Below are positions 1,659 to 6,193 of a DNA stretch of 32,000 bases, piece after piece. Made by a program: the position numbers and the translations under genes. The DNA is from Candidatus Methanoperedens sp. GTDB taxonomy: Archaea > Halobacteriota > Methanosarcinia > Methanosarcinales > Methanoperedenaceae. Each line of letters opens with the position of its first letter. The first letter of the stretch is position 1. The notes below the pieces were generated by a model. That model saw nothing but the letters and a program-made list of their open reading frames with translations. It searched no databases and had not been told where the DNA came from. The stretch covers positions 150,001 to 182,000 of the forward strand of contig JBGQBI010000003.1 in assembly GCA_041494705.1 (NCBI GenBank), written 5' to 3'.

Positions 1659-2924
1659 CTATTTATTTAATACCATCTGTCTCTTAACAATATAATCCAA
1701 CATGTCCATCCTATGCATTTTTAATTCTTCGTTGGTCAGATTCGGATGCTTATATATAAAGTCTGTCTCCGCCTCTCCATCGCGTAATCCAAGGGTCATA
1801 ACGAACCTTTCGTAATCATGTGTCAATAATTCCATGCCATAATCCTGCGGTTTTTCGTAAATATCGCATCCAGGAAATGGGACAAAAGTCGAAACATCCA
1901 CTCCATCGGGCTGGACATCCTCTATGAAATCAATGTTCATTTTGCCGGTATTTTTTGCTTCTCCGGGTAAACCTACAATAAAAAACAGCCTTACTTTCAA
2001 ACCTGCTTCTTTTGCATTTTTTACTGCCTTCCTTGCCTGTTCTATCCGTATTCTTTTTTTATTAATATCCAATACTTCCTGTGATGCAGATTCGATGCCG
2101 TATCCAATTTCGTCGCAACCTGCTCTTTTCATCGCGCTCAATGTTTCCATGTCGGAACGGTCAACTCTTGTATGCGCCCGCCAGTGTATTTCCAGTGGCT
2201 CCATTTTTTTGCATAATTCCAATAACCTGGCTTTATTCAGTGTCATTGTGTCGTCATGGAACCTGAAATGGCGCACCCCATAATCCTGTATTATCTGTTT
2301 TAACTCCATGATAACATTATCAGCATTTCTGAATCTCACTTTATTACCCCACATCGTCCTGCTCGCACAAAAAGAGCAATTATGGCTACAGCCCCTGGAT
2401 GTGATGAGTGAAGTCGCCGGCTTTCCCTTTTCTACAAGACTATAGCTAATTATAGAATCCAGAGGCAGCAAATGCCTGGCAGGGAACGGAATCTCATCAA
2501 TATTTTTTACATACTCTTTTTGATAAAATCTTTTAGTAACATTATCCTTACAATCTCTTAACAAATCTAAAAATGCAAGCTCTCCTTCACCGACGACTAC
2601 TTTGTCAAATACCGGGTCAACTGTTTTTGGTGCTGCAGTAGCATGCGCTCCGCCCAATACTGTGATGCATTTATAATTTTCCTTTATTTTTTTAGCTATT
2701 CTTACAGACCTGAGGTAGTCCAGTGTTGTCGCGCTTATCCCATAGACATCTGCTTCAGGGATTTTTTTAATCCAGTCTTCTTCTTCAACATAACACAAAT
2801 CAACCAATTCTACATCATAATTCTCTTTTTCCAGCATTGCAGCTAAGTACAGTATCCCCAGGGGCTGGTTTCTTTTTTGATCTGTAAGATATGGATGGGG
2901 AGGATTTATTAATACTACCTTCAC
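1659..2924 (-). CDS. B12-binding-domain radical SAM enzyme (class B-like)
   Basis: The N-terminal part looks like a cobalamin-binding domain ([21 protein letters not shown]). A canonical CX3CX2C motif, [12 protein letters not shown], lies at nt 2367-2390. The GTG start at 2924 overlaps the stop of the upstream gene (GTGA). Confidence 0.85.
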
Positions 2925-3862
2925 TTTATCACCCTTTTATTCATTTTATACCACTCAATAGTCTTTTCAAGCCCATACTTAAAATCCGTCCCTGCCTTAA
3001 ATCCAAACTCTTTTTTTGCCCTGCTAACATCCAGGCACCGTCTCGGCTGCCCATCCGGCTTGCTCGTATCCCATCTTATCTCTCCATCAAAACCTGCGAG
3101 CTCTGCTATAAGCAGAACCAGGTCTTTTATCGAAATTTCGATTCCTGAACCCAGATTAACAGGCTCGCTTTTATTATATTTCTCTGACGCCAGCACGATT
3201 CCGCGCGCTGCGTCCCCCACATAGAGGAACTCCCTTGTTACGTTCCCGGTTCCCCACACGGTGATATGGTCTTTGCCCGATTCTTTGGCATCAACAACTT
3301 TCTTGACAAGCGCTGGAATGACATGAGAAGATTCGGGGTCGAAATCATCGCGCGGTCCGTACAGGTTGGTCGGCAGCAGGAAGATTGAATTAAACCCATA
3401 TTGTTTCCGGTACGCCTGTGACTGCACCAGCATCATCTTCTTTGCCAGCCCGTAAGGGGCATTTGTTTCTTCGGGGTAACCGTTCCACAGGTCATCTTCT
3501 TTAAACGGAACCGGTGTGAACTTGGGATAACAGCATACAGTCCCTACGGCAACAAATTTCTGTACATTGGCAAGCCTTGCTTCTTCCATTAATTGCGCGC
3601 CCATCATTATATTATCAAAAAATATCTCACCGGGATATGCTAAATTAAATCCGATACCGCCGCCTTTGACAGCTATATGGATTATTATATCTTTGTCTTT
3701 TACAGCATTCCTGCAATTTTCCCTAACCCTCAAATCGCAAGACCTGGATCGCGGCACAGTTATATCCCTCGCTCCTTTTTCTTTCAGCATGTCAACCACA
3801 TGCGAACCCAGAAACCCCGCGCCTCCCGTTACCAGTAATTTCTTATCTGCCCAGAAAGACAT
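2921..3862 (-). CDS. fcl: GDP-L-fucose synthase family SDR (Fcl/ColC-type 3,5-epimerase/4-reductase)
   Basis: [13 protein letters not shown] Rossmann motif, YGLAKKM (YxxxK), and [20 protein letters not shown] plus [16 protein letters not shown], which closely resemble Fcl/WcaG as I recall it. It lies 2 nt downstream of the DegT-like gene. Confidence 0.75.
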
Positions 3863-3864
3863 TT

Positions 3865-5091
3865 TTAATCTCCACTATCTGAAATAATATCTCCAAAAAC
3901 GTCAATAATATAATCTAAATCATCCTGCTCCAGATATTGATGGCATCCTATATAAAATGCATTTTTCCCGAGATACTCGGCATTTGGCAGCTTGTTTTCG
4001 TATTCTTCTTTCATATACCCGAATGCTGGCTGCTGGGTTGGGATGCAGCCAAACAGCGGTCTTGTCTCTATTCCACGCTCTTCAAGTTTTCTTCGAAGCT
4101 TCTTCCTTGATAATTTATCCGGATTTTTTATGACTACCGGGTACGCTATATAACTAACATTCTTATCATATTTCGGCAACTTCAGCAAATCGGAAAATTT
4201 CTCCAGACCTTCATTCAGGTACTTAACGTTATGACTTCTTCGTTCTTTTATCCAGTCCGCTTTTTTTAACTGGGTAATTCCCAGCGCCGCCTGGAACTCC
4301 ATTGTTTTAAAATTATATCCGATAAACTCATGAGTAAATCTCGGGTCAAAATCATCATCTCCTTCGTATTTCGATAGTTTTGGACATTTTCCCTGAGACC
4401 TCTTACAAACCGGGCAATCGCACATCCTGCCATTTGCCTTGATTTTCCTTACCAGCCGCACTATATCGGGATTATCCGTCGTTATAGCCCCCATCTCTCC
4501 TGCCTGGATATTATGCGCGATATAGAAAGAAAAACATGAGAGAAGAGACAACGACCCTGTCTTTCGTCCTTTGTAAACCGTTCCATGTGCCTGCGACGAA
4601 TCTTCAAATACCCGCAAGCCATAAGTCTTTCCGATTTTATTAATTTCATCCATGTCGCAGGGATAACCCATCAAATGAACCGGCAGGATAAATGAATATC
4701 TATCAATATCATCCGCTCCCTCAAGTTGCTTTTTTATGTTATCGGGCGTTATACCAAATGTCTCCATATCAACATCGACATAAACAGGATTAAATCCCGT
4801 ATTTACCAGCGCACTGCTCGTTGCGATATAGGTCAGCGGCGTTGTTATTACATTTGTGCCGTGTATAACATCGAGGCTTTCATCGTGAAGCATTGCAGTC
4901 ATTCCGGCAATCAGCGCGGACGTTCCGGAATTTACGGCTATCGAATATTTTGTCCCGATATATTCCGCAAAGAGTTTTTCAAATTCCCTGACCTTTATAT
5001 TCTCGGATATTCTTCCATTATCCAGAACATCATTAATTGCTCTCTTCTCTTCAACGCCGATTCTGAAATCGCCAACGCTAATATGTTTCAT
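3865..5091 (-). CDS. DegT/DnrJ/EryC1-family PLP/PMP enzyme with His in the Schiff-base Lys position and a Cys-cluster insertion (sugar 3-dehydratase-like, RfbH/E1/ColD type)
   Basis: The track ORF starts at TTG 5121. ATG 5091 ([23 protein letters not shown]) fits family N-termini better. The motif [14 protein letters not shown] has His (CAT, 4513-4515) where the family has Lys. There is an insertion [16 protein letters not shown] (4384-4422), followed by [20 protein letters not shown]. Confidence 0.8.
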
Positions 5092-5146
5092 ATATTCCCA
5101 TAGTCGCTTATGTAAAAGCAAATGTTCACCGTTTCATCTTCCGTTA

Positions 5147-6193
5147 TTAATCAGCGCCCCACCATCTGTTCGGGAACTTCTTTTTGATTATTTCATCCCC
5201 TTCGCAAAGGGACTCTAATCCATACGCCCTCATATCCGCATCAACCATTATTTTAACCAGTTCTTTGAATTTAATTCCAGGTTTCCATTTTAGTTTTTTT
5301 ATAGCCTTGCTTGAATCTGCAATCAATTCTTCAACTTCGGTAGGTCTGTAATATCTTGGATCTATCTTTATATATTCATCCTGGTCAAGACCAGCATAAG
5401 AAAACGCCTCATCTACGAATTCCCTGACCGAGTGCGCCTCTCCGGTTCCTATAACAAAGTCCTCAGGGTTTTCATTTTGAAGCATTTTCCACATGAATGC
5501 AACATATTCCGGCGCATAACCCCAGTCCCTTCTGGCATCAAGGTTGCCCAGAAAAAGGCTATCCTGTTTTTTTGCTAATATTGCTGCAATAGCCCTTGTT
5601 ATTTTCCTTGTTACAAATGTTCCACCCCTTCGCGGTGATTCATGGTTAAACAATATCCCATTGCATGCAAAAATCCCATATCCATCCCGGTAATTTGCAG
5701 CCATCCAGTAGGCATAAACCTTGGCTGCTGCGTAGGGACTTCGGGGAATGAAAGGAGTTGATTCGTTTTGCGGCGGTAGCGAGGCTCCAAACATTTCGCT
5801 GCTGGAAGCCTGGTAAAATTTTATGTTATTCCCGCTCCTCCTTATCGCTTCCAGAATCCGTGTCGTGCCAAGAGCAGTGATATTGCCGGTGTATTCGGGA
5901 GCATCAAAGCTGACCCTGACATGACTTTGCGCGCCTAAATGATACACTTCATCGGGTTTTATGTTATAAATAACATTTGAAATTTGTTCAGAATCGGAAA
6001 GGTCGCCGTAGTACATAAAGAGCCTCGCATCGGGCTTGTGCGGGTCGACATAAATATGATCAATCCTGGAAGTGTTGAAAGTGCTCGCTCTTCTTATAAT
6101 CCCGTGTACTTCATAACCTTTTGAGAGTAAAAACTCCGCAAGATATGAGCCATCCTGTCCCGTTATTCCGGTTATCAGCGCTTTTTTAGTCAT
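5147..6193 (-). CDS. gmd: GDP-mannose 4,6-dehydratase
   Basis: [38 protein letters not shown] and [12 protein letters not shown] are classic Gmd motifs. The track ORF starts at TTG 6229; ATG 6193 (MTKKALITG) is the likely start. Confidence 0.92.

Follow-up and report, generated by a model that had tools for sequence, protein, structure and literature searches.

On a stretch of 32,000 nucleotides from Candidatus Methanoperedens sp. (here called the window), three adjoining minus-strand genes encode the GDP-mannose 4,6-dehydratase Gmd, a 408-amino-acid DegT-family protein that we call E1L, and an enzyme of the Fcl family. The evidence set out below suggests that E1L is probably a GDP-4-keto-6-deoxymannose 3-dehydratase dependent on pyridoxamine 5'-phosphate (PMP) and an iron-sulfur (Fe-S) cluster, and that the cassette makes a colitose-like GDP-3,6-dideoxyhexose for the surface-glycan cluster, containing the oligosaccharyltransferase AglB, in which it lies. 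E1L appears to combine traits of two known bacterial deoxygenases, and what seems to be new, as judged from its sequence, is a loop variant with four cysteines in a GDP-mannose context. An earlier note made from the letters of this DNA had proposed such a pathway, and our analysis supports that interpretation, in which the identity of the sugar product, the metal of the cofactor, and any connection to N-glycans are what we infer.

Open reading frame (ORF) calls with ATG starts place the genes in the order gmd, E1L, and Fcl-like gene; 55 nt separate the first two and 2 nt the last two, in agreement with the earlier note. The gmd ORF extends from 5147 to 6229, with the ATG start at 6193 and an alternative TTG at 6229. 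Its product scores 500 bits against the equivalog model TIGR01472, above the cutoff of 415, and 454 bits against the Pfam model GDP_Man_Dehyd, and the catalytic motif SSE...Y..K is present in the sequence, which bears out the name given to the gene. The E1L ORF occupies 3865-5121, the ATG at 5091 giving the 408-amino-acid protein, and the match to Pfam family PF01041 (298 bits) agrees with its proposed membership of the DegT/DnrJ/EryC1 group. The third protein is, as proposed, a member of the Fcl family, with the Fcl catalytic positions Thr, Cys, Tyr, Lys, and His all kept. Its closest solved relatives in the Protein Data Bank (PDB) are GDP-L-fucose synthases, with 8DU0 first at 212 bits, followed by GDP-mannose 3,5-epimerases; the best PDB matches are all enzymes of GDP-sugars.

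Histidine at the lysine position and the cysteine loop

In sugar 4-aminotransferases such as perosamine synthase, ArnB, and WecE, the catalytic Lys follows the motif SF(Y/H)xx, whereas E1L has a His there, His193 in the numbering of the 408-amino-acid protein. When E1L was compared with PDB sequences using phmmer, His193, which belongs to a 14-residue motif spanning 4489-4530, fell in the same column as His220 of E1, as the catalytic residue His188 in ColD, and as the Lys that forms the Schiff base in the sugar transaminase 7B0D, so that the Lys-to-His change read earlier from the CAT codon holds. E1 (also RfbH, DdhC, or AscC) is the CDP-6-deoxy-L-threo-D-glycero-4-hexulose 3-dehydrase of Yersinia and Salmonella, and the entry for its H220K mutant, 3BB8, has Lys in the His193 column, which therefore validates the E1 numbering used here. 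The homologue alignments show no alternative conserved Lys at the cofactor site of E1L, such as would, according to the earlier note, have refuted its reading. Across 150 diverse homologues Asp164 at this site never varies, and Glu163 and Ser188 hardly do. The Lys-to-His replacement is the defining change that sets nucleoside diphosphate (NDP)-sugar 3-dehydratases apart from aminotransferases according to a review (PMC8987622), in agreement with the earlier note, which had called it the hallmark of these enzymes.

The cysteine insertion of E1L was found where it had been placed before, with a 13-residue core at 4384-4422 inside a 16-residue string at 4384-4431, and a second 14-residue motif, which comes after the loop in the protein, spans 4306-4347. 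GRMCDC of E1L aligns with GRDCYC of E1, which contains C251 and C253, and the loop matches the cluster loop C251-Y-C253...C261. The earlier note had given the E1 sequence as GRDCWC, which occurs in other E1-type proteins but is not what Yersinia E1 reads. The ligands of the E1 cluster are reported (Agnihotri et al. 2004) to be C193, C251, C253, and C261, forming the motif C-X57-C-X-C-X7-C, and this numbering agrees with the alignment to 3BCX and 3BB8. E1L departs from this pattern in that all four cysteines sit inside the loop (C-x-C-x2-C-x6-C) and only the C-x-C pair is kept. Where E1 reads EDC192C193DALG, E1L reads EDSSQAHG, the C192 and C193 positions being Ser165 and Ser166, so that the place of the fourth E1 ligand, C193, is taken by Ser166. 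The idea of an E1-like cysteine cluster therefore stands for the homology of the loop and for the C-x-C pair but not for the ligand pattern.

In the phmmer comparison, E1 (3BCX) was the first match of E1L, at 184 bits (5.6e-53), followed by ColD (2GMS) at 161 bits (4.8e-46). The identity to E1 is about 27%, and the two proteins have in common the DegT fold, the His at the Lys position, and a G-R-x-C-x-C loop. Because E1 is the closest solved relative with both the His and a homologous loop, it is the likeliest mechanistic model for E1L, implying PMP, an Fe-S cluster, and one-electron reduction. E1 acts in a CDP-glucose context with the reductase E3 (AscD) as its partner, whereas E1L lies in a GDP-mannose context, marked by Gmd, with no E3 gene. 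ColD (WbdK; PDB 2GMS and 3B8X), the enzyme of colitose synthesis that acts as GDP-4-keto-6-deoxy-D-mannose 3-dehydratase, resembles E1L in its gene order (gmd, 3-dehydratase, and the Fcl-like gene colC, for GDP-L-colitose synthase), in its substrate, which is the one predicted for E1L, and in the aligned catalytic His, but it has no Cys in the loop stretch and no Fe-S cluster, in contrast to the invariant four-Cys loop of E1L. The SpnQ group, comprising actinomycete NDP-hexose 3,4-dehydratases, is His-type, carries Fe-S, and has no dedicated E3, as we suppose for E1L, but acts on dTDP-linked 2,6-dideoxy substrates, whereas the substrate of E1L would be GDP-linked. A homologue on a Streptomyces plasmid, annotated RfbH and taken here as a proxy for the SpnQ group, has the E1-type motif (EDNC and GRDCWC-x7-C) and not the four-Cys loop. 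E1, ColD, and SpnQ were the only three well-characterized sugar 3-dehydratases in a 2022 review, which describes a four-Cys [2Fe-2S] cluster in E1 and SpnQ and none in ColD and presents the C3-deoxygenation of GDP-linked sugars as the route of ColD, free of Fe-S (PMC8987622).

An AlphaFold2 model of E1L built from a 150-sequence alignment has the DegT fold, with a predicted local distance difference test (pLDDT) score of 97.6 and values of 92-95 in the Cys loop. A shallower alignment, of 30 sequences with identities of 65% or more, gave a model that was discarded, its pLDDT being 64 overall and under 50 in the loop. Template modeling (TM) scores of the retained model to E1, ColD, and PerA, obtained with Foldseek against the PDB, are 0.83-0.86. 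All matches lie at TM 0.82-0.86, and the comparison does not separate dehydratases from transaminases.

Spread of the four-cysteine family and its gene neighborhoods

The 120 best homologues of E1L, taken from a set of 5.8 billion proteins and 66-100% identical to it, all keep both SF(Y/F)xAH and C-x-C-x2-C-x6-C, and H193, C224, C226, C229, and C236 are invariant in a 30-sequence alignment. In a scan of one genome per Genome Taxonomy Database (GTDB) species, relatives of E1L were present in 466 genomes. Among the best 80 of these, whose loci were analyzed (56-89% identity), about half are archaeal and half bacterial, nearly all from anaerobic lineages, and both motifs are kept in 78 of 79 loci. 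The archaeal carriers are Bathyarchaeia, Methanobacteriaceae including Methanobrevibacter cuticularis, Methanoperedens, Thermoplasmata, Altiarchaeia, and DPANN; the bacterial ones are Scalindua, Omnitrophota, Dehalococcoidia, Anaerolineae, Clostridia, Patescibacteria, and Methylomirabilis. The conservation of the four cysteines in orthologues, which the earlier note had asked to see, is thus complete or nearly so, and the His and the four Cys are no chance features of the family. The enzyme is not a peculiarity of this archaeon. That the family is almost confined to anaerobic lineages fits an oxygen-sensitive cluster.

Clustering at 50% identity collapses the whole family, at 57-100% identity, into one representative. 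Of the 150 top-ranking representatives, the four-Cys loop, G(R/K)xCxCxxC...C, occurs in 40 and an E1-type loop, with CxC and one distal Cys, in 15, the latter mostly together with EDCC or EDxC upstream. The remaining His-type representatives have a loop without Cys, as in ColD, and in Lys-type transaminases the loop is entirely missing. E1L is therefore a member of a distinct and large four-Cys-loop subfamily.

The same searches turned up several unusual homologues. One on plasmid pDMC1 of Solidesulfovibrio magneticus (NC_012797.1, 24434-37612), 34% identical to E1L, is of the four-Cys type with the upstream Cys missing. Its neighbors are a 'GDP-L-fucose synthase,' two subunits of a thiamine pyrophosphate-dependent enzyme, a NUDIX protein, a kinase, a nucleotidyltransferase, and a radical S-adenosylmethionine (SAM) gene; this set may encode a branched-chain dideoxy sugar pathway and, being in a cultured organism, would offer a handy experimental entry point. 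A 758-amino-acid His-type homologue from the representative search (P0137) carries an insertion of about 350 residues with a LAGLIDADG motif; the insertion ends ...THN|C, exactly at the active-site motif ED-N|C, and from its sequence looks like an intein. The gmd/dehydratase/Fcl-like cassette also lies on an 11.2-kb contig that a metagenome-assembled genome labeled Methanofastidiosum and a genome labeled Peptococcaceae share at 99.8% identity, reflecting either a binning conflict or a very recent interdomain transfer.

Gene order was compared in the 58 loci where the E1L relative is flanked on either side by 1.2 kb or more, a neighbor being called Gmd at 270 bits or more to the Gmd of the window. 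Gmd is immediately upstream in 16 of these loci and an Fcl-like gene immediately downstream in 22, and 11 have both. These loci range over Bathyarchaeia, Thermoplasmata, Altiarchaeia, DPANN, Clostridia, Methylomirabilis, Patescibacteria, and others, and Gmd lies within 3.5 kb in about 29 loci scattered across the tree. In an NCBIfam scan, 27 of 58 upstream proteins matched gmd (best 8e-166) and 27 of 67 downstream proteins matched the Fcl model.

Proposed pathway and competing explanations

From the alignments and the gene context we infer that E1L has 3-dehydratase activity on a GDP-linked substrate and binds an Fe-S cluster with a redox role. In the proposed pathway, Gmd would convert GDP-mannose to GDP-4-keto-6-deoxy-D-mannose, and E1L and PMP would form a PMP-sugar Schiff base from which His193, acting as the base, would expel the C3 hydroxyl; because His193 replaces the Schiff-base Lys, PMP is expected to be bound non-covalently. 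The enamine intermediate would then be resolved in the manner of E1 and SpnQ, by two one-electron transfers via an Fe-S cluster on C224, C226, C229, and C236, to give GDP-4-keto-3,6-dideoxy-D-mannose. The Fcl-family enzyme would epimerize C5 and reduce C4, in a ColC-like reaction, to yield GDP-L-colitose or a stereoisomer of it, and glycosyltransferases of the AglB-containing cluster would use the GDP-dideoxy sugar. No E3-type ORF (with ferredoxin, Fer2, or FNR domains) is present in the window, as the earlier note had found, or in the 21-kb locus L001. With no dedicated reductase encoded nearby, a housekeeping ferredoxin or flavodoxin would have to supply the electrons. That note had counted this lack as part of an unusual combination; the gene is indeed absent, but there is a precedent in SpnQ, which runs on general ferredoxin or flavodoxin reductases and not on E3 (PMC8987622).

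Several observations weigh against this pathway. The top NCBIfam model for E1L is that of RfbH/E1 (NF011936), which it matches at 237 bits, under the equivalog cutoff of 423, and the top model for the third protein is that of Fcl, or GDP-L-fucose synthase (NF047922), matched at 281 bits, under the cutoff of 500. In the comparisons made, which were with Fcl enzymes, no sequence feature of the third protein separates ColC from Fcl. About half of the related loci, including those of Scalindua, Anaerolineae, and Methanobacteriaceae, have no gmd in reach, and the family members encoded there may use other substrates, or gmd may sit elsewhere in the genome; in these clades the E1L relative is flanked by glycosyltransferases and flippases, which neither favor nor contradict a GDP substrate. 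The ferredoxin motif CxxCxxCxxxCP was found in only 1 of about 85 related loci scanned, and no electron donor gene is linked. Because the E1 motif is not matched exactly, C193 being Ser, the metal center may be 2Fe-2S, 4Fe-4S, or Zn. Full-text literature searches found no biochemical characterization of any member of the E1L family.

We consider it unlikely that E1L follows ColD-type chemistry, with hydrolysis of the enamine, regeneration of PMP from L-glutamate, and a four-Cys loop that is merely a structural metal site, for example, for Zn. ColD, which regenerates PMP with glutamate (PMC8987622), is the second-best solved relative, and its gene context, in which gmd precedes and an Fcl/ColC-like gene follows, is that of E1L; the lack of a linked reductase or ferredoxin gene and the Ser at the E1 C193 position, which makes the site unlike the proven [2Fe-2S] site, fit this chemistry as well. 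Yet Cys is missing from the loop in ColD and in proteins that resemble it, whereas the E1L loop is homologous to the cluster-ligating loop of E1, E1L scores higher against E1 than against ColD, and the strictly anaerobic distribution fits a redox cofactor. The chance that E1L is instead a conventional sugar 4-aminotransferase, such as those for perosamine or other 4-amino-4,6-dideoxyhexoses, is very small. Such an activity is what its public names express ('dTDP-4-amino-4,6-dideoxygalactose transaminase,' 'perosamine synthetase,' and 'UDP-4-amino-4-deoxy-L-arabinose aminotransferase'), although some JGI records call it a CDP-hexulose 3-dehydrase. The lowest Foldseek E-value of its model is to the GDP-perosamine synthase 3BN1, in a comparison whose scores do not discriminate between the two activities, and SpnQ can transaminate when its reductase is absent (PMC8987622). 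Against this stand the replacement of the Schiff-base Lys by an invariant His, with no other conserved Lys at the site, and the complete lack of the loop in Lys-type relatives.

A different reading would separate the functions of the three genes, Gmd and the Fcl-like enzyme making GDP-L-fucose while E1L deoxygenates another NDP-4-keto sugar, CDP- or dTDP-linked, that is made elsewhere. The public annotation of the third gene at both JGI and NCBI is GDP-L-fucose synthase, in keeping with its intact Fcl catalytic residues, many members of the E1L family have no gmd nearby, and the window encodes an extended short-chain dehydrogenase/reductase (SDR) similar to dTDP-glucose dehydratase (Table 1). 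We nevertheless regard this separation as quite improbable: E1L is wedged between the two other genes of the cassette, an order met again in phyla far apart in both domains, and the third protein, though it keeps the Fcl residues, falls well short of the Fcl equivalog cutoff. Moreover, a bona fide CDP-glucose 4,6-dehydratase was not found among the 58 upstream neighbors (best match, 8.6e-45), and sugar-1-phosphate nucleotidyltransferases number at most a few among those neighbors; none of these is encoded in the window.

If a GDP-linked, Fe-S-dependent pathway is what the cassette encodes, the E1L family suggests that the GDP route is served in many anaerobes, archaeal and bacterial, by an Fe-S enzyme resembling E1, with rearranged ligands and no dedicated reductase. 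This would widen the known cofactor solutions for sugar deoxygenation and correct a widespread misannotation of the family as aminotransferases, and it predicts a 3,6-dideoxyhexose on the surface of Methanoperedens-type methane oxidizers and many uncultured archaea, which is directly testable by glycoproteomics. In the literature searches, neither colitose nor any other 3,6-dideoxyhexose was found reported for archaeal glycans, nor was a characterized Fe-S 3-dehydratase from a GDP context; a genome survey based on hidden Markov models implies predicted colitose pathways in archaea outside the TACK group and gives no detail. More tentatively, and as a possibility that we ourselves hold to be doubtful, the His-type DegT enzymes with a four-Cys loop may form a distinct, anaerobe-restricted class of 3-dehydratases, in which an oxygen-sensitive Fe-S cluster held by one loop and reduced directly by ferredoxin would serve the E1-type radical deoxygenation of GDP-sugars, placing a 3,6-dideoxyhexose in the protein glycans of archaea, methanotrophic ones among them. 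The value of E1L lies chiefly in the directly testable biochemical prediction that it provides.

The surrounding glycan cluster

Table 1. Features of the E1L cassette and of its surroundings in the window
Feature	Position	Strand	Evidence or remark
B12-binding radical SAM enzyme	1659-2924	-	PF04055 and PF02310; overlaps Fcl-like gene by 4 nt
Fcl-family SDR, predicted ColC-like GDP-4-keto-3,6-dideoxymannose epimerase/reductase	2921-3862	-	NCBIfam and PDB matches
E1L, predicted PMP-dependent GDP-4-keto-6-deoxymannose 3-dehydratase, His-type, with four-Cys loop	3865-5091	-	PF01041
Cys loop of E1L, C224-D-C226-P-V-C229-KRSQGK-C236 (C-x-C-x2-C-x6-C), candidate Fe-S ligands	4384-4422	-	Alignment with E1
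His193 codon of E1L (CAT), in place of Schiff-base Lys	4513-4515	-	Alignment to PDB sequences
gmd, GDP-mannose 4,6-dehydratase	5147-6193	-	TIGR01472 and Pfam GDP_Man_Dehyd
GT2 glycosyltransferase with hydrophobic C terminus, directly upstream of gmd	6226-7251	-	PF00535, 87 bits
Toxin-antitoxin pair (BrnT and CopG type) inserted midway into the glycan cluster	7268-7824		
Extended SDR	7948-8838		dTDP-glucose-dehydratase-like similarity
B12-binding radical SAM gene	8900-10420		
Two large ORFs (574 and 748 amino acids)	13513-17493		No significant Pfam match; weak precomputed DUF6311 match for the first
AglB oligosaccharyltransferase	24062-26407	-	STT3, AglB_core-like, and AglB_L1 domains
Aconitase small-subunit-like protein, DUF7714 protein, and 'methanogen homoisocitrate dehydrogenase'	28585-31244		

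The placement of the cassette in an AglB cluster, also part of the earlier note, was confirmed: AglB is encoded on the same strand, 18 kb away, and its JGI name is 'oligosaccharyl transferase (archaeosortase A-associated).' AglB marks the cluster as one for archaeal protein glycosylation, and the recipient of the cassette sugar is plausibly an N-glycan. Between the cassette and AglB lie glycosyltransferases, two Wzx-type flippases, and the two unannotated large proteins; the flippases could serve another surface polysaccharide. The GT2 enzyme next to gmd is a candidate transferase of the cluster.

The radical SAM gene that overlaps the Fcl-like gene is not conserved beside E1L elsewhere, except in one locus (L037), and all NCBIfam matches of its product are far under their cutoffs. 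It possibly represents a lineage-specific tailoring step, and this translationally coupled B12-radical SAM enzyme might further tailor the dideoxy sugar. Past the left end of the window, the contig (L001, 13505-21227) carries two further B12-radical SAM genes and three SAM methyltransferase genes among glycosyltransferases, and the multiplicity of such genes suggests heavily methylated or otherwise tailored glycans. The other radical SAM gene of the window, at 8900-10420, was considered as an obligate partner or electron source of E1L and rejected, since none of 80 metagenome loci that carry it (L089-L168) has the dehydratase, even though several genome loci contain both E1L and an orthologue of this radical SAM gene. 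In about 30 of these 80 metagenome loci an orthologue of the GT2 gene is directly downstream of the radical SAM orthologue, whereas in the window the extended SDR gene and the toxin-antitoxin pair lie between the two.

The homoisocitrate dehydrogenase encoded in the window is at least 90% identical to a Candidatus Methanoperedens protein, which points to a Methanoperedens-like (ANME-2d) archaeon as the host. The G+C content falls to 33% over a GT4 glycosyltransferase gene at 469-1590, compared with about 42% in the rest of the cluster, which hints at separate acquisition of this gene.

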